The notes beneath the pieces are model-generated. The model made no database searches and was not told the origin of the DNA. It saw only the letters and a list, made by a program, of their open reading frames with translations. From the NCBI RefSeq assembly GCF_001625305.1, contig NW_017803490.1:8155655-8219654 (forward strand): a DNA stretch of 64,000 nucleotides, read 5' to 3'. A program made the position numbers and the translations under genes. The stretch is from Branchiostoma belcheri. Lineage: Eukaryota. Below are positions 4,944-25,856 of this stretch, piece by piece; within the stretch, counting starts at the first letter, position 1; every line of letters begins with the position of its first letter.

Positions 4944-7028
4944 TTATATCTTTTTAACCCGGGCTTCCTCAATCACCTTTGCAACATCACTGTGTTTTGT
5001 TTCTACGGCAGCTTGATATGGAGTCTTGCTACTTTTGTCTGGTATAGATATATCTGCCCCTGCTTCGATAAGTACTTTCACAACTTCCATGTTTCCATAG
5101 AATGCTGCTATCCACAATGGTGTTTTTTTATCCAAGTCTGTCTTGTTCAAGTCTGCCCCCGCTTGGGTCAAGATGCTCACAATCTCTGCATGTCCTCTGT
5201 CAGCAGCAAACCACAGTGGAGTCATTCCCATATCATCTACCTTGTTTAAGTCTGCTCCCGCTTGCACCAAGATGCTCACGACCTCTGCATGTCCTTTCTC
5301 AGCCGCCACTGATAGTGGAGTCGTTCCCTCCTTGTCTGCCTTGTTCAAGTCAGCCCCCGCTTGAATCAAGGTTCTCATGGTCTCTGCGTGTCCTTGCTCA
5401 GCTGCTAAAAACAAGGCAGTTGTTCCCCTGCTGTTCGTCCTGTTTAGATCCGCATCTGCTTCTGTCAGGATGCTCACCATCTCTGCATTACCACTCTGAG
5501 CCGCCAACTGCAGTACAGACTTCCCCATACCACTTTCTGTGTTTGCACTGTCTGTGTTTGCCCCTGCTCCAGGGTCTGCCCCTTTCTGCAGCAGGAGTTT
5601 GACGATGCTAGAATGTCCGCCCCTCATTGCATCCCAGAGTGGTGTTTCTCCCTCAGAGTTCTCTGTGTTCACCTGTACACCTGCCTGTAGCAAGGTCTTC
5701 ACCTTGTCTTCATCACCTGTCCAGGCTGTTATCCTTAACAGCGCATCTCTCCAGGTGTCTCTCAGTTCCTCGTAGGTTTGTGTAGACTCTTCACCTGTTT
5801 CCTGCGTTTGTGTACACTCCTCAGAGTGTTCACCTGTTTCCTTCATTTCTGACAACACAAAGGCATCCATAGCTTCCTCCACTATCTCTGCCACCTCTTC
5901 TTCAAGCTGTTCTGTTGACAGAACGTCCACCTCTAAGGGACAGTTGAGCCCAATGTTCTCAAACTCTGCCTGTAAGTCAGCTGCCAGCTTGCCACTTTCT
6001 TGGTAATCATTTAATTCACTGATGCTTTCATCAGTCTTGGGAAACATCTGTATACAAATTGAAGATGACCACATTTTGCCAATTTCGAAACCTTTACATT
6101 GTTTAATGATGAATTCCTTGCACAAGTCTAGACTACTATCATCAATTTGTAAAATGGTATCGAAAATTTCCTCCCGAGCAGACGATTCTACCACAAGATA
6201 GTAGCATTTCCTAAGCATTTCCCTTGCAAGTTGCATGCTACTAACTGCATTCAGTACGAATTTCGGGTCGCTCGAATGTCTGTCACTTTGTTGACTCTGT
6301 TTTCCTTTAGTGATCTTCTTTGTTTTCTTAACTGTTTTCTTCTTGACTTTCTTGTTTTCTTTGCCTATAGGTGATTCAGATGCCTGCGATGAGCTTGTGG
6401 CAGTAGATGGAACTGATGTGGTGTTTTCCAAAGCGCTTTCCTTTCGCTTCTGGCTTAGGACACCAGTTGAAGTATCTGATAATGGTGGGGTCTCAACAGA
6501 CTGACTGTTATCGGTGGTATTTTGTGCTAGACCTGAACTAGAGACCTCATTAGACATACCTGATAGTGACAGTTTCTTCAAATCTACATTTAGACAGTCA
6601 CTCTCTTCTGCAGAGTCATGTTTAGGCTGTGAACTCTGGACAGAAATATCCGAAAATGGAGGGGCCACTGTCTCAACATCTTGACTTTGTGCAATAGTTT
6701 CTGTGTTGAGCTGTGAAGCATCATCCTGTAGATCTTGGTATAGCTTGTCTTTCAGCCTATCCACAAGGTCTTGTCTTTTTATCTCCTTTAAAGCGGCCAG
6801 TAGTTTCACCACTGTCGCCTGCTTTCCTTCTTGTTGCCTCCACTTTTCCAGCATCGTACGGTTCCGCCATATCAGATGAATTGTCTGACTCTTAGTAACC
6901 ATTTCCTCGACAATGTTGTACTTCAGTCCTAATTTAAAGCCAAGATCGATCCAGTCATCCCCCAGATTTGACTGTACAATGTCAAAAGCTGCGTCCAACT
7001 CTGCTCCTACATCACCTCCAACCGCCAT
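4944..7028 (-). CDS. Gene B. A 694-aa single-exon protein: N-terminal death domain, S/T-rich and lysine-rich linker, conserved unknown module, acidic tract, then about 7-8 C-terminal ankyrin repeats.
   Basis: Uninterrupted ORF in the six-frame track. DD-like N-terminus (…LDAAFDIVQSNLGDDWIDLGFKLGLKYNIVEEMV…IHLIWRNRTMLEKWRQQEGKQATVVKLLAALKEIKRQDLVDRLKDK). ANK repeats (GETPLWDAMRGGHSSIVKLLLQKGADPG…, TPLSVAAEKGHAEVVSILVQAGADLNK…). Confidence 0.85.
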   Translation of the reverse strand: MAVGGDVGAELDAAFDIVQSNLGDDWIDLGFKLGLKYNIVEEMVTKSQTIHLIWRNRTMLEKWRQQEGKQATVVKLLAALKEIKRQDLVDRLKDKLYQDLQDDASQLNTETIAQSQDVETVAPPFSDISVQSSQPKHDSAEESDCLNVDLKKLSLSGMSNEVSSSGLAQNTTDNSQSVETPPLSDTSTGVLSQKRKESALENTTSVPSTATSSSQASESPIGKENKKVKKKTVKKTKKITKGKQSQQSDRHSSDPKFVLNAVSSMQLAREMLRKCYYLVVESSAREEIFDTILQIDDSSLDLCKEFIIKQCKGFEIGKMWSSSICIQMFPKTDESISELNDYQESGKLAADLQAEFENIGLNCPLEVDVLSTEQLEEEVAEIVEEAMDAFVLSEMKETGEHSEECTQTQETGEESTQTYEELRDTWRDALLRITAWTGDEDKVKTLLQAGVQVNTENSEGETPLWDAMRGGHSSIVKLLLQKGADPGAGANTDSANTESGMGKSVLQLAAQSGNAEMVSILTEADADLNRTNSRGTTALFLAAEQGHAETMRTLIQAGADLNKADKEGTTPLSVAAEKGHAEVVSILVQAGADLNKVDDMGMTPLWFAADRGHAEIVSILTQAGADLNKTDLDKKTPLWIAAFYGNMEVVKVLIEAGADISIPDKSSKTPYQAAVETKHSDVAKVIEEARVKKI

Positions 7029-7379
7029 CTTGCTGTAGTGTGGTATAGAAGCGTAAAATGGTAGCTAATAATTGCCCTTTGTCCAGCTGCATGTGACACA
7101 TTCCTTTGGGCAAAAACATGTCAATCATGTGAGTTGAAGTTGTTTGGTTTATAGTTACGGTAAACTGAGTTTACTGTGCCCTTCTTGATGTATTTACACA
7201 AGACTCTTTAAACTTTGCCGACTGCACGTCACTCACATACTTGCACAGATAGCGTTTTCAGAGCACGTCAGCAGAACGTACTGCGTCTGCGCGAAACCCT
7301 GATTTTTGGTTGGATGTTTGGTCAACGTTGCACCAGAATTTCGTCTGTTGCAGACGGGGGTCCCACCAATTCTCCATTG

Positions 7380-7860
7380 GTTTCAGGGTTAGGCAGCAGG
7401 GAGAAGGTTAACCTTTAGCACACTGAAGTAGCCATTTGGGGACCAACTCTCTACTGGTTATAGAGTTAGGCAGCAGGGAGAAGGTTAACCTTTAGTACAC
7501 TAATGTAGCCATTTGGCGACCAATTCTCTATTGGTTACAGGGTTAGGCAGCAGGGAGAAAAGGTTAACTTTTAGCACACTGAAGTAGCCAATTGGGGACC
7601 AACTCTCTACTGGTTACAGAGTTAGGCAGCAGGGACAAGATTAACCATTATAGCACACTGAAGTAGCCATTTGGAGACCAATTCTACTGGTTACAGAGCT
7701 AGGCAGCATCGGGCAGGATTCGAACCCTGAACCTCTGGGGTCTGAATTTGAGCCGAACACTCTACCATTACGCCACACGACCCCACTGATGGGAGAAGGT
7801 TAACCTTAAGCACACTGAAGTAGCCATTTGGGGACAACCAAGGTGCACTAGCCAGTAATT
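7380..7860 (-). mobile_element. tRNA-derived SINE (tRNA-like head at about 7700-7790, minus strand) with a tandemly amplified 60-bp tail repeat, about 6 units.
   Basis: The minus strand reads GGGGTCGTGTGGCGTAATGGTAGAGTG…GGTTCGAATCCTGCCCGATGCTGCC, with tRNA-like D and TΨC regions. The 60-bp repeats flank it. Confidence 0.65.
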
Positions 7861-8585: not shown

Positions 8586-11450
8586 TTAACTATGGCCATC
8601 CTCAATTACCTTTGCAACATCACTGTGTCCCATTTCGATGGCAACTTGATACGGAGTCTTTCCAGTTTTGTCTGGTTTAGAAATACCTGCCCCTGCTTCA
8701 ATAAGTACTTTCACAACTTCCATATTTCCATGGTGTGCTGCTCTCCACAATGGCGTCTTTTGATCCCTGTTTGCCTTGTTCAAGTCTGCGCCCGCTTGTG
8801 TCAGGATGCTCACAATCTCAGCATGTCCTTTCTCAGCCGCCACCCACAGTGGCGTTCTCCCCATATCATCTGCCTTGTTCAATTCGGCCCCCGCTTGTAT
8901 CAAGACGCTCGCGACCTCTGCATGTCCACTCCAAGCCACCACTGATAGGGGAGTCGTTCCCTCATCATCTGCCTTGTTCAAGTCAGCCCCTGCATGTGCC
9001 AAGATGCTCACGACCTCTGCATGTCCATTCTCAGCTGCCGCCCACAGTGGAGCCCTTCCCATGCTGTTTGCTTTGTTCAATTCGGCCCCCGCTTGTATCA
9101 AGATGCTCACAATTTCTGCATGTCCATTCAGAGCTGCCACCAATAGTGGAGTCCTCCTCTTATCATCAGCGTTGTTCAAGTCTGCCCCTGCTTGTGTCAA
9201 GATGCTCACAATCTCTGCATGTCCTCTCTTAGCCGCCACCCACAGTGGAGTCACTCCTAAGACATCTGCCTTGTCCAAGTCCGCCCCTGCTTGTACCAAG
9301 ATGCTCACGACCTCTACATGTCCACTCCAAGCTGCCTCCCACAGTGGAGTCACTCCTAAGACATCAGCCTTGTTCAAGTCAGCCCCCTCTTGTGCCAACA
9401 TGCTCACGACCTCCGCATGCCCATTCTCAGCTGCCCACCACAGTGGAGTCCTTTTATCATCATCGGCCTTGTTCAAGTCTGCGCTCGCTTGTATCAAGAT
9501 CCTTACAATCTCGGCATGTCCTTTCTCAGCCGCTGCACACAGTGTAGTCCTTCTCTCATTGTCTGCCTTGTTCACATCAGCCCCTGCCTGTGTCAAGTTC
9601 CTCACAATCTCGACATGTCCCCTCTCAGCCGCCACCCTCAGTGGAGTCTCTCCCCTATCGTCTGCCTTGTTCAAATCTGCCCCTGCTTGTATCAAGATGC
9701 TCACAATCTCTGCACATCCCTTCAAAGCCGCCACCAATAGCGGAGTCCCTACCTCATTATCTGCCTTGTTCAAGTCTGCCCCCGCTTGTATCAAGATGCT
9801 CACGATCTCGGCATTACCACTCTGAGCTGCCAACCACAGTGGAGTTTTCCCCATACGACTTGCCAGATTTGCAACTGCTGGGTCTGCCCCTTTCTGCAGC
9901 AGAAGTCTAACAATGTTAGGATGTCCGCCCCTCACTGCATCCCAGAGTGGAGTTTCTCCCTCGGAGTTCTGTGTGTTCACCTGTAGACCTGCCTGTAGCA
10001 GGGTCTTCACCTTGTCTTCATCACCTGTCCAGGCTGTGATCCTTAACAGCGCATCTCTCCAGGCGTCTCTCAGTTCATCGTAGCTTTGTGACGATTCTTC
10101 ATCTGTTTCCTGCGTTTGTGTAGACTCCACGGAGTCTTCATCTGTTTTCTGCGTTTGTGTAGACTCCACGGAGTCTTCATCTGTTTCCTGCGTTTGTGTA
10201 GACTCCACGGAGTCTTCAGCTGTTTCCTTTGTTTCTGACAACACAAAAACGTCCATAGCTTCCTCCACTATCTCTGCCACCTCTTCTTTGAGCTGTTCCA
10301 TTGACCGGACATCCCCCTGCAAAGGGCCACTGAACCCAATTTTCTCATACTCTGTCTGTAAGTCTGCGGTGAGCTGGCCACTCTCTAGGTATTCAATCAG
10401 TGCTTTGATATATTCGTCAGTTTTTGGGAAGATTTGGACATAGATTGAAGACGGCCACATTTTGGCAATTTTAAGCCCTTTTCGTAAAACTTTGTGTTGT
10501 TTGAACACTTTGATAATAGCGGCTCTGCTCAAGTCTTTGTTAGCATTGTAGAATTGTGAAACGTCTTCCATGGCTTTCTTCTCTAAGTGCTGATGAGCAC
10601 CTGACACAAGTCCCTCCTTGAGACAGCTTTGAATCTTTAGATAGCAACACTTTATACGGATTTCTTTAGCAAGCTGTTGGCTTCGTACAGCATTTAGTGC
10701 GAACTCTAAACGTTTCACATCAAGTCTTGCACTTGACGTATACCTGGAGCTTGATTTTCCTTTCTTTCCTTCCTTCTTACCTGCTTTGGTACTGTTCTTG
10801 CTTTCTTTGTCTTCGTCTCTTGAGGTCGTCTTGACTCCTTTGATAGTACTTTCCTTGTTTTCTCTGTCTCTATCTCTTGAGGTCGTCTTGACTCCTTTGA
10901 TAGTACTTTCCTTGTTTTCCCTGTCTTTATCTCTTGAGGTCGTCTTGACTCCTTTGATAGTACTTTCCTTGTTTTCCCTGTCTTTATCTCTTGAGGTCGT
11001 CTTGACTCCTTTGATAGTACTTTCCTTGTTTTCCCTGTCTTTATCTCTTGAGGTCGTCTTGACTCCTTTGATAGTACTTTCCTTGTTTTCCCTGTCTTTA
11101 TCTCTTGAGGATGTCTTGACTTCTTGCTCTTCGCCCAGCTGTAAAGAAGACAGACCCTTAAGGCAAAGATTCTCTTGTACTCTGTCCACAAGGTCTCGCC
11201 TTCCTGTCCTCTTCAAAGCTGTCAGCAATTTCTCCAGTGTTGCCCTTTTCCCACTTACTCGCCTCCATTTTTCCAGCACAGTACGGCTTCGCCTCACTAG
11301 ATTTACCTCCCTCTCATTTCGGATTTCCTGTATGACGTTGTGCTTCAGTCCTAGCTTTAAGGCAAGCCGTATCCAGTCCTTCCCCAGGTCTGGCTGTAGA
11401 ATGTCAAAAGCTGCGACCAACTCTGTCCCTGTGTCACCTCCAGCCGCCAT
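8586..11450 (-). CDS. Gene C. A DD-ANK paralogue of about 955 aa, with internal coding minisatellites and about 16-17 ankyrin repeats. The track ORF extends upstream to 11645 in frame, but the homologous start is MAAGGDTGTELVAAFD at 11450.
   Basis: Track ORF 8586..11645. In paralogues B, D and E the start aligns with the internal Met 'RGKMAAGGDTG', in the same nucleotide context 'ccgccatcttgc'. The C-terminal half is a long ANK array (…TPLWLAAQSGNAEIVSILIQAGADLNKAD… repeated). Confidence 0.8.
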   Translation of the reverse strand: MAAGGDTGTELVAAFDILQPDLGKDWIRLALKLGLKHNVIQEIRNEREVNLVRRSRTVLEKWRRVSGKRATLEKLLTALKRTGRRDLVDRVQENLCLKGLSSLQLGEEQEVKTSSRDKDRENKESTIKGVKTTSRDKDRENKESTIKGVKTTSRDKDRENKESTIKGVKTTSRDKDRENKESTIKGVKTTSRDRDRENKESTIKGVKTTSRDEDKESKNSTKAGKKEGKKGKSSSRYTSSARLDVKRLEFALNAVRSQQLAKEIRIKCCYLKIQSCLKEGLVSGAHQHLEKKAMEDVSQFYNANKDLSRAAIIKVFKQHKVLRKGLKIAKMWPSSIYVQIFPKTDEYIKALIEYLESGQLTADLQTEYEKIGFSGPLQGDVRSMEQLKEEVAEIVEEAMDVFVLSETKETAEDSVESTQTQETDEDSVESTQTQKTDEDSVESTQTQETDEESSQSYDELRDAWRDALLRITAWTGDEDKVKTLLQAGLQVNTQNSEGETPLWDAVRGGHPNIVRLLLQKGADPAVANLASRMGKTPLWLAAQSGNAEIVSILIQAGADLNKADNEVGTPLLVAALKGCAEIVSILIQAGADLNKADDRGETPLRVAAERGHVEIVRNLTQAGADVNKADNERRTTLCAAAEKGHAEIVRILIQASADLNKADDDKRTPLWWAAENGHAEVVSMLAQEGADLNKADVLGVTPLWEAAWSGHVEVVSILVQAGADLDKADVLGVTPLWVAAKRGHAEIVSILTQAGADLNNADDKRRTPLLVAALNGHAEIVSILIQAGAELNKANSMGRAPLWAAAENGHAEVVSILAHAGADLNKADDEGTTPLSVVAWSGHAEVASVLIQAGAELNKADDMGRTPLWVAAEKGHAEIVSILTQAGADLNKANRDQKTPLWRAAHHGNMEVVKVLIEAGAGISKPDKTGKTPYQVAIEMGHSDVAKVIEDGHS
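10088..10225 (-). repeat. In-frame 36-nt coding repeat x about 3.5 inside gene C, encoding the acidic 'EDSVESTQTQETD' units.
   Basis: 'ctgcgtttgtgtagactccacggagtcttcatctgttt' is repeated. The peptide is ETAEDSVESTQTQETDEDSVESTQTQKTDEDSVESTQTQETDEES. Confidence 0.9.
10790..11110 (-). repeat. In-frame coding minisatellite inside gene C. A 60-nt unit x about 6 encodes (K)TTSRDKDRENKESTIKGV.
   Basis: Exact 60-nt periodicity 'tctcttgaggtcgtcttgactcctttgatagtactttccttgttttccctgtctttatc'. The track ORF shows the peptide repeat. Confidence 0.9.
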
Positions 11451-11556
11451 CTTGCCTCGGTGGGGTAGACTAAGTGAAATATATCCCCTGGTGACGCACT
11501 CGTCTGTTGAGTTGAAGTTGTTTGGCCAGTAAAATAACGCCGCTGTTTTGTTACTG

Positions 11557-11568
11557 TGTATAAATAAG
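11557..11568 (-). promoter_or_regulatory. TATA-like element (TGTATAAATAAG) about 110 bp upstream of the gene C start codon, within the conserved 5' flank.
   Basis: TATAAATA motif. The same motif, with surrounding sequence conserved, lies upstream of gene D. Confidence 0.35.
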
Positions 11569-11962
11569 CACCTCTCAATTACAAAAGACCCTGTGCCCTT
11601 CAAAACAGTAGGGTTGACCCTAAACCTAACCTTATCGCTGACCAAGACTCAGGTAAGGTGAGTAGACGTTCTTTTGTCTTGTCTGTACAGTAGCTATAGA
11701 AGATATAGAAGACTGGTAACCAGACCCATGTGAGCTCAGAGCCTTCGGCGCTGGTAGTGTTTTGGGCCGCAAAACCGTAGTGTTTCGGCCCCGCGCGTCG
11801 GGGGTAGATTTTTATGTTTACCTTAAACAGCATGCATTTGCTTTCAAATGTTATTTTTCTACAACGATGTAGTTGCAGACAGTTTAGGTTTGTTCGCTCA
11901 CAATGCGGTCGGTGCGCAGTAGAAGACTGGGGACATGTCTGTGGGTATAGCTCGCCTGTGCT

Positions 11963-12833: not shown

Positions 12834-15065
12834 TTATGTATTTTTAATTAAGCATTCCTCAATCACCTTAGCAACATCACTGTGTCCCATTTCTATGGCA
12901 GCTTGATAGGGAGTTTTGCCAGTTTTGTCTGGTATAGAAACATCTGCCCCCGCTTCAATAAGTACTTTCACAGCTTCCATGTTCCCACAGTGTGCAGCTG
13001 TCCACAATGGTGTCTGTTCATCCTTGTTTGATTTGTTCAGGTCCGCCCCCGCTTTTATCAAGATGCTCACAATGACTACACCTTCACTTTCAACCACCAC
13101 CCACAGTGGCGTCCTTCCCATAATGTCTGCCTTGTTCAAGTCCGCCCCAGCTCGTATCAAGATGCTCACGATCTCGGCATGTTTACTCCACGCTGCCACC
13201 CAGAGTGGGGTCTCTTCCATGCTGTTTGCCTGGTCCAAGTCCGCCCCCGCTTGTGTCAGGATGCTCACAATCTCTGCACTTCCTCTCTCAGCCGCCACCC
13301 ATAGTGCAGTTCTTCCCTCATCATCTGCATTGTTCAAGTCTGCCCCCGCTTGTATCAAGATGCCAACAACCTCTGCATGTTTCCTCTTAGCCGCCACCCA
13401 CAGCGGAGTCCTTCCCAGAACACCTGCTGTGTCCAAGTCAGCCCCTGCTTGTATCAAGATGCTCACGACCTCTGCATGTCCATTCTCAGCTGCCGCCCAC
13501 AGTGGAGTCCTCCCCATGCTGTTTGCCTTGTTCAAGTCCGCCCCCGCTTGTATCAAGGTGCTCACCATCTCTGCATTTCCACTCTCAGCTGCAACGAAAA
13601 GTGCAGTTCTCCCCTCATCATCTGCTTTGTCCAAGTCCGCCTCTGCTTGTGTCAGCATGCCCACAATCTCTGTATTACCACTCTGAGCTGCCAGCTGCAG
13701 TAGAGTCTGCCCAATAACACTTGCTGTGTTTGCCCCCGCTCCAGGGTCTGCCCATTTCTGCAGCAGGAGTTTGACAATGTTAGGATGTCCTCCCCTCACT
13801 GCATCCCAGAGCGGTGTTTCTCCCTCGGAGTTCTGTGTGTTCACCTGTACACCTGCCTGTAGCAGGGTCTTCACCTTGTCTTCATCACCTGTCCAGGCTG
13901 TGATCCTTAACAGCGCATCTCTCCAGGCGTCTCTCAGGTGCTCGTAGGTTTGTGTAGATTCTTCGCCTGTTTCCTGCGTTTGTGTAGACTCCTCAGAGTC
14001 GTCACATTTTTCCTGCGTTTCTGACAACACAAACATGTCCATAGCTTCCTCCACTATCTCTTCCACTTCTTCTTCAAGCTCCTCCATTGTCAAAACGTCC
14101 ACCTCTAAGGGACAGTTGAGCCCAATGTTCTCAAACTCTGCCTGTAAGTCTGCGGCTAGCTCGCCACTTTCTTGGTACCTGTTTAATTCGCTGATGCTTT
14201 CGTCAGTTTTGGGAAACATCTGTACACAGATTGAAGATGACCACATTTCACCAATTTCGAAATCTTTGCAAAGTTTAAGGATGATTTCCTTGCACAAGTC
14301 TAGTCTACCACCATCGATTTGTGATAGGGCCTCTAACAGTTCTTCCCGAACAGATGATTTTACCACAAGATAGTAGCACTCCTTACGCTTTTGCTTTGCA
14401 AGCTGCATACTACTAACTGCTTTCAGTACAAATTTCGGGTCGCTCGAATGTCTGTGACTTTGTTGACTCTGTTTTCCTTTAGTGGCTTTTTTTGTTTTCT
14501 TACCAGTTTTCTTCTTGACTTTCTTGTTTTCTTTGCCTATCGATGATTCAGATGCCTGCGATGAGCTTGTGGCAGTAGACGGCAGTGTGGTATATTCAAA
14601 CTTGCCTTGCTTTGATCGTGGGCTAGAGACACTCTCTTCTGTGGAGTGTTGTTTAGGCGGTGAACTCGAGAATCCTGTTGAAATATCCGATAATGGTGGG
14701 GACACCGTCTCAACGACTCGACACTTTTCAGTGACGTCTGTGTTGAGCTGTGGATCGGCATCCCGTAGGTCTGGGTACTTGTCTTTCAGTCTGTCCACGA
14801 GGTCTTGTCTTTTTATCTTCTGTAAAGCGTGCAGAAGATCCTGTACTGTCGCCTGCTTTCCTTCTTGTTGCCTCCATTTTTCCAGCATGGTACGGTTCCG
14901 CCATATCAGGTGAATTGTCGGACTCCTATTAACCATTTCCTCGACAACGTTATACTTCAGTCCTAATGCTAAGCCTAGGTCGATCCAGTCATCCCCCAGG
15001 TCTGACTGTATAGTGTCAAAAGCTGCCTTCAACTCTGTCTCTGCGTTAAAACCAACCGCTGCCAT
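12834..15065 (-). CDS. Gene D. A 743-aa DD-ANK paralogue: DD, linker, unknown module, acidic tract, then about 9 ankyrin repeats.
   Basis: Uninterrupted track ORF. N-terminus MAAVGFNAETELKAAFDTIQSDLGDDWIDLGLALGLKYNVVEEMV. ANK repeats (RTPLWAAAENGHAEVVSILIQAGADLD…). Confidence 0.85.
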   Translation of the reverse strand: MAAVGFNAETELKAAFDTIQSDLGDDWIDLGLALGLKYNVVEEMVNRSPTIHLIWRNRTMLEKWRQQEGKQATVQDLLHALQKIKRQDLVDRLKDKYPDLRDADPQLNTDVTEKCRVVETVSPPLSDISTGFSSSPPKQHSTEESVSSPRSKQGKFEYTTLPSTATSSSQASESSIGKENKKVKKKTGKKTKKATKGKQSQQSHRHSSDPKFVLKAVSSMQLAKQKRKECYYLVVKSSVREELLEALSQIDGGRLDLCKEIILKLCKDFEIGEMWSSSICVQMFPKTDESISELNRYQESGELAADLQAEFENIGLNCPLEVDVLTMEELEEEVEEIVEEAMDMFVLSETQEKCDDSEESTQTQETGEESTQTYEHLRDAWRDALLRITAWTGDEDKVKTLLQAGVQVNTQNSEGETPLWDAVRGGHPNIVKLLLQKWADPGAGANTASVIGQTLLQLAAQSGNTEIVGMLTQAEADLDKADDEGRTALFVAAESGNAEMVSTLIQAGADLNKANSMGRTPLWAAAENGHAEVVSILIQAGADLDTAGVLGRTPLWVAAKRKHAEVVGILIQAGADLNNADDEGRTALWVAAERGSAEIVSILTQAGADLDQANSMEETPLWVAAWSKHAEIVSILIRAGADLNKADIMGRTPLWVVVESEGVVIVSILIKAGADLNKSNKDEQTPLWTAAHCGNMEAVKVLIEAGADVSIPDKTGKTPYQAAIEMGHSDVAKVIEECLIKNT

Positions 15066-20500: not shown

Positions 20501-21161
20501 CAGGAAGAAACATTAAGCAACCTGCAATTCTGTAAACTGAAAAAATCAGACTATCCAGAACCATTCCTGACCATGATTCTGAAGAAAGCACGATTTTCGA
20601 TATGTGTGAACTAGAGCTGTGTACCTAAACAAATTTTAGGTACAGGTACAGGTACACAGGTTTAGGTACAGGTCCGGACCTGAACCTGTACCTGAACAAT
20701 TCGACCAGTGTATATGCTCTTCTGAACTCCTGTAATAACTAGAAAAACATTGATATAGGTTTAATTTTTGTTTATGGAGAATGTTCAGATAAAATACAGG
20801 TAAAAGTAAAGATGTTTTTGTTTTCATGAACACACAGGGACCCATTGTTAACCAGCTATTTACACATTTGAGGTCACAAATAGGCATAAAATTGGTGTGA
20901 AATTGTTTAGGTACAGTACCGGTACTGAGGGATTAGGTATTTTGGACCTGTACCTAATCAATTTTTCCGGTACAGTATCGGTACTGCGTACCGGTACACA
21001 GCTCTAGTGTGAACCCAGAATATTATCTGAGCATGGTTTCTAAATATACCGGTAACAAATTTTATGGATAAGGATACAACATGCAGCATATGGATACAAA
21101 AGTTGCAACGTATGGCGACAAAAATTGCAACACAATTCTGGATATGCCACAGATTTCTCAC

Positions 21162-21360
21162 CTCCCTCCTCTCGTCAGCGTGTCGCAGCTTCCACTGCAC
21201 CATGGCCCGCAGCATGTCAAACTTTTCCTTCTGTCTCTGCAGCGCCTGTGTGAGGTTAGAGATGACCTGGTCCTTCCGCTGGATGGACTGCTCGTACGTG
21301 TGGAGTAGCTCTTTTAGGCTCTCTATCTCGTTCTGCAGCTGGCTCACCTCTCGGGCATGT
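21162..21360 (-). CDS. POC5: POC5 exon (coiled-coil)
   Basis: Acceptor 'ttttttag|ACATGCC'. Donor 'GGGAG|gtgaga'. Encodes HAREVSQLQNEIESLKELLHTYEQSIQRKDQVISNLTQALQRQKEKFDMLRAMVQWKLRHADERRE, compared with POC5 '[47 protein letters not shown]'. Confidence 0.65.
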
Positions 21361-22581: not shown

Positions 22582-23408
22582 CTGCAGTTGGGGAAATAAT
22601 GCAGAAATAATACAGAATGTGAGTTAGTATAGAGGCTCCACCTAGCAACTTTGAATTGAACTGAACCATCAGTACTTGTCTTCCTTTTAATGCCCACGAT
22701 CATCATTCATACTGATCATTCTGGCATGCCAATTCTTGGCAAGACTCGGGATTGTAGAACAGCCCATGGACAGGTCAGGGGTTAACAGAGCAACTTGCCA
22801 TTGGGATGGCATACATGTACATACATGTATGTACGACTAATAAGCACCTAATAAAAGGAAAACACACCTGCTAAAGCAAAGCAAACAATGTATAAGGCTA
22901 AGGCATTGAAGATCCTATATGTAAATACTACCGTAACGAACCTGAATGGGTTTATTTTAAGACAGTGTCGAAATGGGACTTTCCGTACACGTCAGTCACC
23001 TGATATGCAAACTATTCTGAGTATTCAACAACTTCAATGCCAAGGTATGTCATGTTTCAAGGCTTGCAATATGACAACACTGGAAAAGCTGGTTTGCCCC
23101 ATTAGCATGTGTTTGTTATGCAATGGCACTGCATGGGTGACCTGTTAGCTATGCAACAAAGCCAGGGTCTTTTATCATTCCTTGACTGAGGCGGTAAACC
23201 GTTATCTTACACACGTCCGTGACGCTTATATGGTTCCGAAGTTTGCTTACTTTGCTTTGCTCAATGTTTAACTGAATTCTTGTCTTGGACAACTTCTGGC
23301 CAAACAACTTCTGTTCGCACCTGTAGGAACTGCAAATATAATTAGATTCACCCCTGCCACTGGACTGAGTAACAAAGTTAACGCAGAAGGAAGTAAGCAG
23401 AAAACAAA

Positions 23409-23585
23409 ATGGATGCAGCTTTCAAGAACTCACAAAACCACCTTGGTGAGGACTGGTTACACTTGGCTTTATATCTGGAACTGGGCTTTGTGAACATACA
23501 GCAAATCCGGAGAGAGAAAACCTTGACATGGCAAGTGGTGTCATTTTACTGGGCAAACAACTTCAACCCAACAGAGGAGTGAGTC
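23409..23585 (+). other. Upstream ORF (58 codons) in the gene E leader. It encodes a degenerate death-domain N-terminal fragment (MDAAFKNSQNHLGEDWLHLALYLELGFVNIQQIRREKT…), then the conserved 'FYWANNFNPTEE' leader, then TGA.
   Basis: Read directly from the sequence. It resembles the DD start 'ELDAAFDILQSELGEEWTQLALELGLKYN' of the main ORF, 43 nt downstream. Confidence 0.4.
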
Positions 23586-23627
23586 AGCAGGGAATATATT
23601 TCACTTAGTCTACAAGACTACGGCAAG

Positions 23628-25856
23628 ATGGCGACCGGAGGTAACACAGAGCCAGAGTTGGACGCAGCTTTTGACATTCTACAGTCAGAGCTGGGGGAGG
23701 AATGGACACAGCTTGCCTTAGAATTAGGGCTGAAGTACAACATTGTCGAGGAAATGGTTACTAAGAGTCCGACAATTCACCTGATATGGCGGAACCGTAC
23801 CATGCTGGAAAAATGGAGGCAACAAGAAGGAAAGCAGGCGACAGTACAGGAACTACTGCTTGCTTTGAAGAAGATAAAAAGACAAGACCTCGTGGATAGA
23901 CTGAAAGACAAGTACACATATCTACAGGATGCTGATCCACAACTCAACACAGACGTCACTGAAAAGTGTCGAGTTGTTGAGACGGTGACGCCTCCGTTAT
24001 CGGATATTTCTACAGGATTCTCGAGTTCACCGCCTAAACAATACTCCACAGAAGAGAGGGTCTTAAAATCTAGCCCACGATCAAAGCAAAGCGTGATTGA
24101 AAATACCCCATCAGTTCCATCTACTGCCACAAGCTCATCGCATTCGTCTGAATCATCTAAAGGCACAAAAAACTTGAGAGTCAAGAAGAAAACTGGTAAG
24201 AAAACAAAAAAGGGCACTAAAGGAAAACAGAGTCAACAAAGTGACAGACATTCGAGCGACCCGAAATTCGTACTGAATGCAGTTAGTAGCATGCAGCTTG
24301 CAAGGGAAAGGCTTAGGAAATGCTACTATCTTGTGGTAGAATCGTCTGCTCGGGAAGAAATTTTGGATACGATTTTACAAATTGATGATAGTAGTCTAGA
24401 CTTGTGCAAGGAATTCATCAGTAAACAATGTAAAGATTTCGATACTGGTAAAACATGGAAATCTTCAATCTATGTACAGATGTTTCCCAAAACTGCCGAA
24501 AGCATCAGCGAATTAAACAGGTACCAAGAAAGTGGCAAGCTGACTGCTGACTTACAGGCAGAGTTTAAAAACATTGGGCTCAAGTGTCCCTTAGACTTAG
24601 AGGTGAAAATTCTGACAATGGAAGAGCTTGAAGAAGAAGTGTCAGAGATAGTGGAGGAAGCTATGGACGTCTTTGTGTTGTCAGTAACCCAGGAAACAGA
24701 TGAAGACTCAGAGGAGTGTACACAAACGCAGGAAACAGATGAAGAATCGTCACAAACCTACGAGGAACTGAGAGACACCTGGAGAGATGCGCTGTTAAGG
24801 ATAACAGCCTGGACAGGTGATGAAGACAAGGTGAAGACCCTGCTACAGGCAGGTGTACAGGTGAACACAGAGAACTCCGAGGGAGAAACACCGCTCTGGG
24901 ATGCAGTGAAGGGCGGACATGCTAACATCGTTACACTTCTGTTGCAGGCTGGAGCAAATCCAGACATGGTTGACGCGAATGGCTCTACTCCACTTCTCCA
25001 TGCTACTTCTCTTGGGTACCTGGAAGTGTGCAGGACACTTGTGTGTGGCGGTGCGGATGTCAACATGGCAGATACAAAACTAACACAAACACCCCTTCGG
25101 ATAGCTATAGAGAAGTCTGACTGGCTGATGCTGACTACGCTTATCCGCCCAGCCAAACACTCATGCGCCAATGACAATGTAAATAAACCTCTGGGTACGT
25201 TTGGTGGCAGCCCGCTCTCTTTGTCTGTTAAAAAGCTCACAGACTTTGAAAAAGGCATTGACACTGAGTCTTCCATGGTAGAGTGCAGGCGTGAGTGGTA
25301 CGAGGAATGGTGTGATCACGTCAGAATTTTCGAGATTTTGTGCAGAGCTGGAGCTAAGAATAAGATTGACTCTACCGACAGACTTGGCCACACATTACTG
25401 CAGTCTGCCTGCAAAGAAGGTTGTGCGATGACAGCAAAACTACTGCTAGACAACGGGGCAGACCGTGACAAACAGGACGACAAAGGTAGAACTCCGATTT
25501 GGGTGGCAGCTTGGCAGGGACACGCAGAGATTGTTAGCGCTTTGATACAAGAAGGTGCTGATTTAAACAAAGCGGACACAGAAAAAAAGACACCGTTGTG
25601 GATAGCTGCAAGAAAAGGGCATGCAAAAGTTGTTAAGACACTTATTGAAGCAGGGGCAGACATTTCTTTACGGGACAACACTGGTATGACCCCACTCCGT
25701 GCTGCTACTAAAAGTAGGCAGATGAATCGGCATGCTGTTGTCTCAATGCTTGTGAAAGCTGCTAGAAGAAAACCATGTGTAGAGAGAGTTAGAAAGACAA
25801 GTTCCAGGGAAAAGTCACCTGGTTATCATACTACTGAGGACTTTGAATATGGCTGA
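23628..25856 (+). CDS. Gene E. A 742-aa DD-ANK paralogue on the opposite strand. Same DD, linker, module and acidic architecture, but a diverged C-terminal ankyrin region that is interrupted.
   Basis: Track ORF MATGGNTEPELDAAFDILQSELGEEWTQLALELGLKYNIVEEMVTKSPTIHLIWRNRTMLEKWRQQEGKQATV… The module (FVLNAVSSMQLARERLRKCYYLVVESSAREEILDTILQIDDSSLDLCKEF…) and the YEELRDTWRDALLRITAWTGDEDKVKTLLQAGVQVN motif are nearly identical to gene B. ANK repeats (GRTPIWVAAWQGHAEIVSALIQEGADLNKAD…). Confidence 0.85.
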   Translation: MATGGNTEPELDAAFDILQSELGEEWTQLALELGLKYNIVEEMVTKSPTIHLIWRNRTMLEKWRQQEGKQATVQELLLALKKIKRQDLVDRLKDKYTYLQDADPQLNTDVTEKCRVVETVTPPLSDISTGFSSSPPKQYSTEERVLKSSPRSKQSVIENTPSVPSTATSSSHSSESSKGTKNLRVKKKTGKKTKKGTKGKQSQQSDRHSSDPKFVLNAVSSMQLARERLRKCYYLVVESSAREEILDTILQIDDSSLDLCKEFISKQCKDFDTGKTWKSSIYVQMFPKTAESISELNRYQESGKLTADLQAEFKNIGLKCPLDLEVKILTMEELEEEVSEIVEEAMDVFVLSVTQETDEDSEECTQTQETDEESSQTYEELRDTWRDALLRITAWTGDEDKVKTLLQAGVQVNTENSEGETPLWDAVKGGHANIVTLLLQAGANPDMVDANGSTPLLHATSLGYLEVCRTLVCGGADVNMADTKLTQTPLRIAIEKSDWLMLTTLIRPAKHSCANDNVNKPLGTFGGSPLSLSVKKLTDFEKGIDTESSMVECRREWYEEWCDHVRIFEILCRAGAKNKIDSTDRLGHTLLQSACKEGCAMTAKLLLDNGADRDKQDDKGRTPIWVAAWQGHAEIVSALIQEGADLNKADTEKKTPLWIAARKGHAKVVKTLIEAGADISLRDNTGMTPLRAATKSRQMNRHAVVSMLVKAARRKPCVERVRKTSSREKSPGYHTTEDFEYG

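Follow-up and report, generated by a model that had tools for sequence, protein, structure and literature searches.

The first 26 kb of a 64,000-nucleotide stretch of Branchiostoma belcheri DNA (RefSeq assembly GCF_001625305.1, contig NW_017803490.1, positions 8,155,655 to 8,219,654; hereafter the window, from whose first letter all coordinates are counted) are occupied by five paralogues, genes A to E, each a single open reading frame (ORF). These genes form a tandem cluster in which a module of about 146-169 amino acids lies between a Death domain and ankyrin repeats. An earlier note on this DNA, made from the sequence without database searches, had put the module forward as a candidate novel domain. 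Structure prediction and profile comparison, with scores that are moderate rather than overwhelming, point instead to TRADD-N, and we consider it very probable that the module represents a highly divergent form of this RRM/ACT-like adaptor domain, within an amphioxus-specific family of Death-domain/TRADD-N/ankyrin proteins. It is not a new kind of domain; it is one that current domain databases, a 2025 copy of Pfam-A included, leave unannotated. The direct link between the module and TRADD-N is weak, so the assignment rests on a two-step chain of homology together with structure, motif and architecture.

TRADD-N was originally recognised in vertebrate TRADD, where it forms the N-terminus. The superfamily has been defined by an RRM-like sandwich whose two helices are kinked and whose four-stranded sheet is exposed (Kaur, Iyer, Burroughs & Aravind, eLife 2021, PMC8195603). 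Its "uS" motif, a tiny residue followed by Ser or Cys, occupies the turn between beta2 and beta3, where Ser67 of TRADD contacts TRAF2, and fusion to a Death domain is its canonical context (PMC8195603). Large lineage-specific expansions are described in amphioxus, sponges, cnidarians, echinoderms and bivalves, following a pattern in which a constant unit of a Death-like domain and TRADD-N precedes variable regions, often ankyrin repeats (PMC8195603). The module conforms to this published pattern insofar as it is fused to a Death domain, belongs to a tandem lineage-specific expansion and is trailed by ankyrin repeats.

A tblastn search of the window with the module returned six copies, two of them in gene A (Table 1), and the module is common to all five genes, as the earlier note had said. 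The peptides quoted there are found exactly as written in the ORFs at 4944-7028(-) and 8586-11645(-). The extent that its text gave for gene B's copy, about 5830 to 6300, is roughly right (5835-6272), but the range 6200-6300 under which the module had been filed covers the N-terminal edge only. The two subtypes it distinguished do exist: in our alignment, identity to the module of gene B is 64-83% for the other three B-type copies and 44-56% for the C-type copies. Two motifs that it had picked out as conserved, "MW.SSI.VQ.FPKTDE" and "ADLQ.E.E.IG", hold for five of the six copies, the exception being the second copy of gene A, which is without the "SI.VQ.FPK" strand and in which alignment gaps mark beta3 and the C-terminal helix as deleted. 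The tandem arrangement of a B-type and a degenerate C-type module in gene A looks as if a B-type gene had recombined unequally with a C-type one.

AlphaFold2 was run twice, once on the six copies and once on 29 sequences, and predicted the same fold with moderate confidence in both runs, with a predicted local distance difference test score (pLDDT) of 78 and 77 and a predicted template modelling score of 0.72 and 0.68. The fold consists of an N-terminal helix, a beta-alpha-beta-beta-alpha-beta RRM-like sandwich containing a four-stranded antiparallel sheet, and a long C-terminal helix, giving the topology H-E-H-H-E-E-H-H-E-H. DSSP assigned the core elements of the models, in module numbering, as E24-30, H33/36-40 plus H45-58, E62-68, E73-78, H81-92 plus H95-106, and E113-119. 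The blocks of this core, with its four predicted beta-strands, reach a pLDDT of about 80-90. Both alpha-helices are kinked (H33-40/H45-58 and H81-92/H95-106), alpha2 breaking at the conserved S93-G94, and a conserved "ESG" is located at this kink. When the module model was compared by Foldseek with 350,542 chains of the PDB, the top match was the TRADD-N domain 1f3v_A, and the structural alignments of the module to TRADD-N have 14-15% identity.

Two serines, S70 and S71 of the module, lie within the turn at 69-72 that joins beta2 to beta3. S71 does not vary among the six window copies or in a 12-sequence alignment that includes distant relatives, and at least 90% of the 29 sequences have it; in the published TRADD-N alignment it falls in the GS/GC column, where TRADD has Ser67. 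The uS Ser, the alpha2 Gly and the register of strands and helices all match that alignment. The motif "MW.SSI.VQ.F" corresponds to beta2, the S-S turn and beta3 of the TRADD-N superfamily, to which the earlier note had given no consideration.

The first step of the homology chain leads from the module to a family of small proteins. An exhaustive search of 1.84 billion cluster representatives with a profile of the six module copies matched 14 proteins: nine amphioxus paralogues, all from Branchiostoma, and five short proteins (P0010-P0014; expectation value, E, 1.7e-7 to 8e-4) that carry the pattern "GSL.V.L.C.T...FLEVL.DYESGK...RL..EF". A second profile search enlarged the set to 26 small proteins, and a profile made from the amphioxus sequences only aligned with this small-protein family at 97.3% in hhalign (E 2.3e-11, 94 columns). 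These proteins, P0010-P0036, make up a stand-alone TRADD-N-like family of about 135-220 amino acids, found on eukaryotic contigs (ENA, NCBI assemblies) and carrying no Pfam annotation; many have a hydrophobic "TLGALYVGY"-type segment ahead of the domain, and P0010 has two domains.

The second step leads from the small proteins to published TRADD-N domains, for which we took as reference the TRADD-N alignment of Figure 2-source data 2 (PMC8195603) and built a hidden Markov model (HMM) from its DEDD2-like plus TRADD sequences. This model matched the small proteins with hmmsearch p-values down to 3e-11. In hhalign, the published DEDD2-like plus TRADD set was matched at 94.2-94.6% with E about 1e-7, the small proteins reaching 94.6% and E 7e-8, and vertebrate TRADD alone at 82% by the combined alignment of module and small proteins (A3) and at 66% by the small proteins alone (A4). 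Taken clade by clade, A3 gave E 3e-7 with DEDD2, 1e-5 with vertebrate TRADD, 2.5e-4 with the bacterial sequences and 1.8e-3 with NCOA6, the signal coming mainly from the small proteins, whose nearest TRADD-N group is that of echinoderms; the amphioxus family profile alone did not discriminate between DEDD2-type and NCOA6-type TRADD-N. Among Pfam families, TRADD-like_N was the commonest to match the small proteins (6 of 26, best E 4.8e-4, below threshold), and P0010 matched TRADD_N with E 0.002 and 18.6 bits against a gathering score of 25.

Controls with reversed and column-shuffled alignments gave E>=0.05. Two of the column-shuffle controls were set aside, as their Prob of 99.6 on 4-13 columns with Sum_probs 0 is a numerical artefact of terminal gaps. 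Among 2200 composition-matched shuffles the best HMM p-values were 7e-6 to 4.5e-5, so that the nominal values overstate significance by one to two orders of magnitude, the strong real matches lying far beyond this range. The module of gene C had the best direct score against the reference HMM (p 8.3e-8, 18.5 bits; best shuffle 4.5e-5).

Several results weigh against the TRADD-N assignment. The B-type copies score p 7e-6 to 4e-4 against the reference HMM, within or barely past the shuffles, and among them gene A's copy alone (7e-6) beats the best shuffle (4.5e-5), by about six-fold. Direct hhalign comparison of the amphioxus family with established TRADD-N profiles gave 7-37% with E 4e-4 to 5e-3; against the DEDD2-clade TRADD-N domains of amphioxus itself the window family showed no affinity (E 0.45). 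No sequence anywhere in the chain reaches the gathering score of any Pfam TRADD model, just one of the five AlphaFold2 models was confident in each run, and the binding of a partner by the module is a prediction only.

Other direct comparisons were likewise without signal. HMMs built from the amphioxus-only, cnidarian-only and DEDD2-orthologue subsets gave none on the window family; a word-index search found no homologue of gene B's module; searches of PDB sequences with the 6-copy and 12-sequence profiles returned no meaningful match. With human TRADD-N as a single sequence, hhalign gave the module alignments insignificant scores, the top alignments of A3 and A4 falling on the expected beta3-alpha2 region. 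At E<=10 the window modules matched none of PF09034, PF20694 and PF13820. Whole proteins B to E showed an N-terminal Death domain and C-terminal Ank families as their only Pfam matches, and isolated modules yielded no credible match at E<=10, those to TFIID_20kDa and Tox-GHH2 being weak and spurious, and so the earlier description of the module as having no recognisable family holds for routine annotation. The missing Pfam match reflects the sensitivity of the models; a gathering score is a criterion for annotation and does not define a fold.

We measured selection on the module as the ratio of nonsynonymous to synonymous divergence (dN/dS), which was 0.21-0.58 across all paralogue pairs and shows purifying selection. 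The Death domain gave 0.43-0.63, the module being constrained at least as much. In the deepest comparisons, those of C-type with B-type modules, synonymous divergence (dS) is about 1.2-1.4 and dN/dS 0.21-0.25, and because of this the conservation of the module is no by-product of recent duplication. The earlier note had argued from the conserved motifs that the module is functional; the predicted fold and the purifying selection show a genuine domain under constraint.

A rival reading is a new domain family, confined to amphioxus and the small metazoan proteins, that is not homologous to TRADD-N and has converged on a generic RRM-like fold. We think this unlikely: the transitive chain is strong at both of its links and survives the controls, the uS Ser, the Gly of the helix kink and the strand and helix register agree with the published alignment, TRADD-N leads the Foldseek ranking, and fusion to a Death domain is the canonical setting of TRADD-N. 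Less probable again is a sensor domain of ACT-like or RRM-like type that binds a small molecule or RNA and does not serve as a protein-protein adaptor; by eye the alignments contain neither aromatic motifs of the RNP1/RNP2 type nor the ACT glycine loop, and the sequence signal runs to TRADD-N and not to the ACT or RRM models of Pfam.

That the module is no domain, and is instead a helical or coiled-coil linker kept alike by recent duplication and gene conversion, has in its favour that some of the paralogues are young (dS 0.2-0.4) and that gene conversion is evident from dS values that differ by region. It is contradicted by the C-type versus B-type divergence given above, by the four predicted beta-strands with their high core pLDDT, and by homologues that stand alone as small proteins elsewhere; we give it almost no credence, the AlphaFold2 models, the profile search and dN/dS effectively refuting it. 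Further candidates were rejected on the model, which is alpha/beta and not the six-helix bundle of a second death-fold domain, and has no Rossmann-like topology as a TIR or P-loop domain would. The earlier note had found no resemblance to TIR, CARD, DED, ZU5/UPA or P-loop signatures, and the module is none of these. It had also named two outcomes that would count against a novel domain, a known fold and predicted disorder. The first is what structure and profile comparison give, by assignment to TRADD-N; a disordered linker fits neither the high pLDDT nor the selection acting on the module.

With the module taken as TRADD-N, a wider possibility is that the window family and the small proteins together form an uncatalogued metazoan TRADD-N clade with flanking helices of its own and an S-S/G-S turn, a "reverse TRADD" type of adaptor missed by the 2021 census and by Pfam. 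We offer this tentatively, the balance being somewhat against it.

Going beyond the predicted fold and the observed motif, homology chain, domain order and purifying selection, we infer a mechanism in which the window proteins are most likely Death-domain/TRADD-N/ankyrin adaptors of innate-immune or cell-death signalling. The Death domain, being of RIPK1/FADD type, would dock the protein into homotypic death-domain signalling assemblies. The exposed face of the TRADD-N beta-sheet with its Ser-Ser turn could then recruit a downstream partner, by analogy with the contact of TRADD Ser67 with the TRAF2 MATH domain, and the variable ankyrin array may bind targets specific to each paralogue.

Table 1. 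Genes, domains and modules of the Death-domain/ankyrin cluster in the window.
Feature	Positions	Strand	Description
Gene A	1-2307	minus	Runs past the window start; two modules
Gene A first module, B-type	1141-1560	minus	tblastn E 1e-42; continuous translation
Gene A second module, C-type, degenerate	613-1023	minus	tblastn E 5e-60 to gene C's module
Gene B	4944-7028	minus	Single ORF, 694 amino acids
Gene B Death domain	6744-6968	minus	Residues 21-95; PF00531 E 4.8e-11, 43 bits against gathering score 22.6
Gene B module	5835-6272	minus	Residues 253-398; N-terminal helix, RRM-like core (probable TRADD-N), long C-terminal helix; tblastn
Gene B RRM-like core, beta1-beta4	5916-6203	minus	Residues 276-371, module 24-119; DSSP on AlphaFold2 models
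Gene B Ser322-Ser323 "uS" motif, beta2-beta3 turn	6060-6065	minus	Ser323 is module S71, at 6060-6062
Gene B ankyrin array	4947-5741	minus	Pfam Ank families, Ank_2 E 1.4e-51; begins at the invariant, putatively capping segment LLRITAWTGDEDKV
Gene C	8586-11645	minus	Probable start ATG 11450
Gene C module, C-type	10221-10727	minus	Longer alpha1 insert; tblastn
Gene D	12834-15065	minus	ORF
Gene D module, B-type	14010-14444	minus	tblastn E 2e-66, 77% identity to gene B's module
Gene E	23628-25856	plus	ORF; ATG at 23628
Gene E module, B-type	24255-24698	plus	tblastn E 6e-69, 82% identity to gene B's module
Array-start segment	about 5700-5760, 10010-10060, 13880-13920, 24780-24830		In paralogues of the window

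Gene B reads in the order Death domain, basic and Ser-rich linker, TRADD-N-like module, acidic linker and ankyrin repeats. The Death domains of genes B to E were found by Pfam with E 5e-11 to 5e-15 and that of gene A was located by tblastn; the solved Death domains nearest to gene B's are those of RIPK1 (E 7e-6) and FADD (E 2e-5). The ankyrin array is built from a 99-bp repeat unit present in about 3 to 11 copies across genes B, C and D. The array opens with a segment "ALLRITAWTGDEDKVKTLLQAG.QVNT.NSEGETPLWDA" that is near-invariant in all paralogues, including the distant P0004-P0008, and shows as an invariant block in an alignment of four genes; it is conserved more strongly than the Death domain and more strongly than the module. 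It may serve a specific role as a capping repeat, or it may be a hotspot of gene conversion.

Synonymous divergence is a mosaic within gene pairs: for B and E, dS is 0.20 in the module and 1.9 in the ankyrin array, and for B and C it is 1.29 in the module and 0.37 in the array. The pattern points to gene conversion among the tandem paralogues, or swapping of Death-domain/module cassettes and ankyrin arrays, and such cassette exchange fits the model of a constant adaptor with a variable C-terminus. Just upstream of gene E, at 23406-23540 (+), lies a relic (MDAAFKNSQNHLGEDWLHLALYLELGFVNIQQIRREKTLTWQ) of the Death domain of another paralogue, covering its first ~45 amino acids and differing little from the N-terminus of P0007/P0008. 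By eye, the ankyrin region of gene E is also P0007/P0008-like, and its Death domain and module are B/D-like, a combination that suggests replacement of the gene E Death-domain and module cassette by recombination.

The flanks of the genes hold further repeats and conserved sequence. The linkers on either side of the gene C module contain coding tandem repeats (10789-11125 and 10096-10228), a 57-bp unit present 5.9 times that encodes "TSRDKDRENKESTIKGVKT" and a 39-bp unit present 3.4 times that encodes "EDSVESTQTQETD". Between genes B and C, at 7365-7708, a 77-bp unit is repeated 4.4 times with 86% matches. Genes A, C and E have a conserved leader ahead of their start codons (2308-2400, 11451-11645 and 23541-23627), with the in-frame translation "FYW.NNFN...EYISL..(G)KM", and the same junction occurs inside the two-unit protein P0001; the duplication unit therefore takes in the 5' flank or untranslated region. 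At 20958-21347 (-) there is a coiled-coil ORF or exon (MSQLQNEIESLKELLHTYEQSIQRKDQVISNLTQALQRQKEKF) with weak sub-threshold Pfam matches to MPS2, Knl1_RWD_C and TACC_C, which is probably part of an unrelated, intron-containing gene between D and E.

If the assignment is true, a "domain of unknown function" gains an identity that can be tested, and these proteins take their place as adaptors within the invertebrate expansion of TNF/TRAF-type immune and cell-death proteins. The Pfam TRADD models, and the published census as far as its table was accessible, miss at least one amphioxus subfamily and the related small-protein family, and therefore the TRADD-N repertoire is probably under-counted. 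Annotation would gain as well, the RefSeq names for window-family proteins being "ANKRD17/50-like" or "Ankyrin-2", and an alignment of the module with its relatives can seed a TRADD-N profile of greater sensitivity.

The module is present in two B. belcheri RefSeq proteins, XP_019616881.1 and XP_019622303.1. The latter (P0002) repeats stretches of genes B and A and is a model of the window locus; it begins within the module, at "MFPKTDE", and is probably an annotation error that joins two neighbouring single-ORF genes, A and B. Judged by their XP_0196 accessions, both proteins should belong to the B. belcheri annotation GCF_001625305.1, which is listed in the 2021 census. Neither accession is among the matches listed from the accessible part of the TRADD-N census table (PMC8195603), nor do those matches include the architecture "Death+TRADDN-DEDD2+Ankyrin" at its alphabetical place, so that, on this part of the table, both proteins are probably absent from the published census.

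In comparison with other TRADD-N domains, the window module is reached only through the small-protein intermediates, its direct profile scores being sub-significant, and it differs in having S-S where G-S is usual and in two added helices, one at the N-terminus and a long acidic one at the C-terminus. A similar domain order in the same organism is that of the amphioxus type "GT4-GTase+TRADDN-DEDD2+Ankyrin" (for example XP_019626189.1, from the accessible census data), in which TRADD-N is also followed by ankyrin repeats; there, however, the N-terminal partner is a glycosyltransferase and not a Death domain, and hhalign finds no specific similarity (E 0.45). Sponge (Amphimedon) proteins also join a Death-like domain, TRADD-N and ankyrin repeats, as in "Death+DED+TRADDN-NCOA6+Ankyrin" in the accessible part of Figure 4-source data 1. 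Unlike the window genes, these usually have a DED beside TRADD-N and belong to the NCOA6 clade, the weakest match to the combined alignment A3 (E 1.8e-3 against 3e-7 for DEDD2), and their expansion is independent.

Orthology to DEDD/DEDD2 was rejected, the N-terminal domain being Death (PF00531) and not DED and hhalign to the DEDD2-orthologue subset giving E 0.78, and so was orthology to TRADD, in which TRADD-N is followed by a C-terminal Death domain without other domains. The window proteins run in the reverse order, Death domain and then TRADD-N, with an ankyrin array added. They are like vertebrate TRADD in combining TRADD-N and a Death domain in one protein, in having TRADD-N as the best structural match in the PDB, where the domain has been solved as 1F2H and, in complex with the TRAF2 MATH domain, as 1F3V, and in a Death domain nearest to those of RIPK1 and FADD, with which TRADD itself partners. 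With the DEDD2-like/TRADD-like members of the superfamily (PF09034, PF20694) the module shares the RRM-like two-layer sandwich, the kinked helices, the turn of a tiny residue plus Ser, the conserved "Y..sG.L" kink in alpha2, the fusion to a Death-like domain, and a tandem expansion that is lineage-specific in amphioxus and leaves the C-terminus variable.

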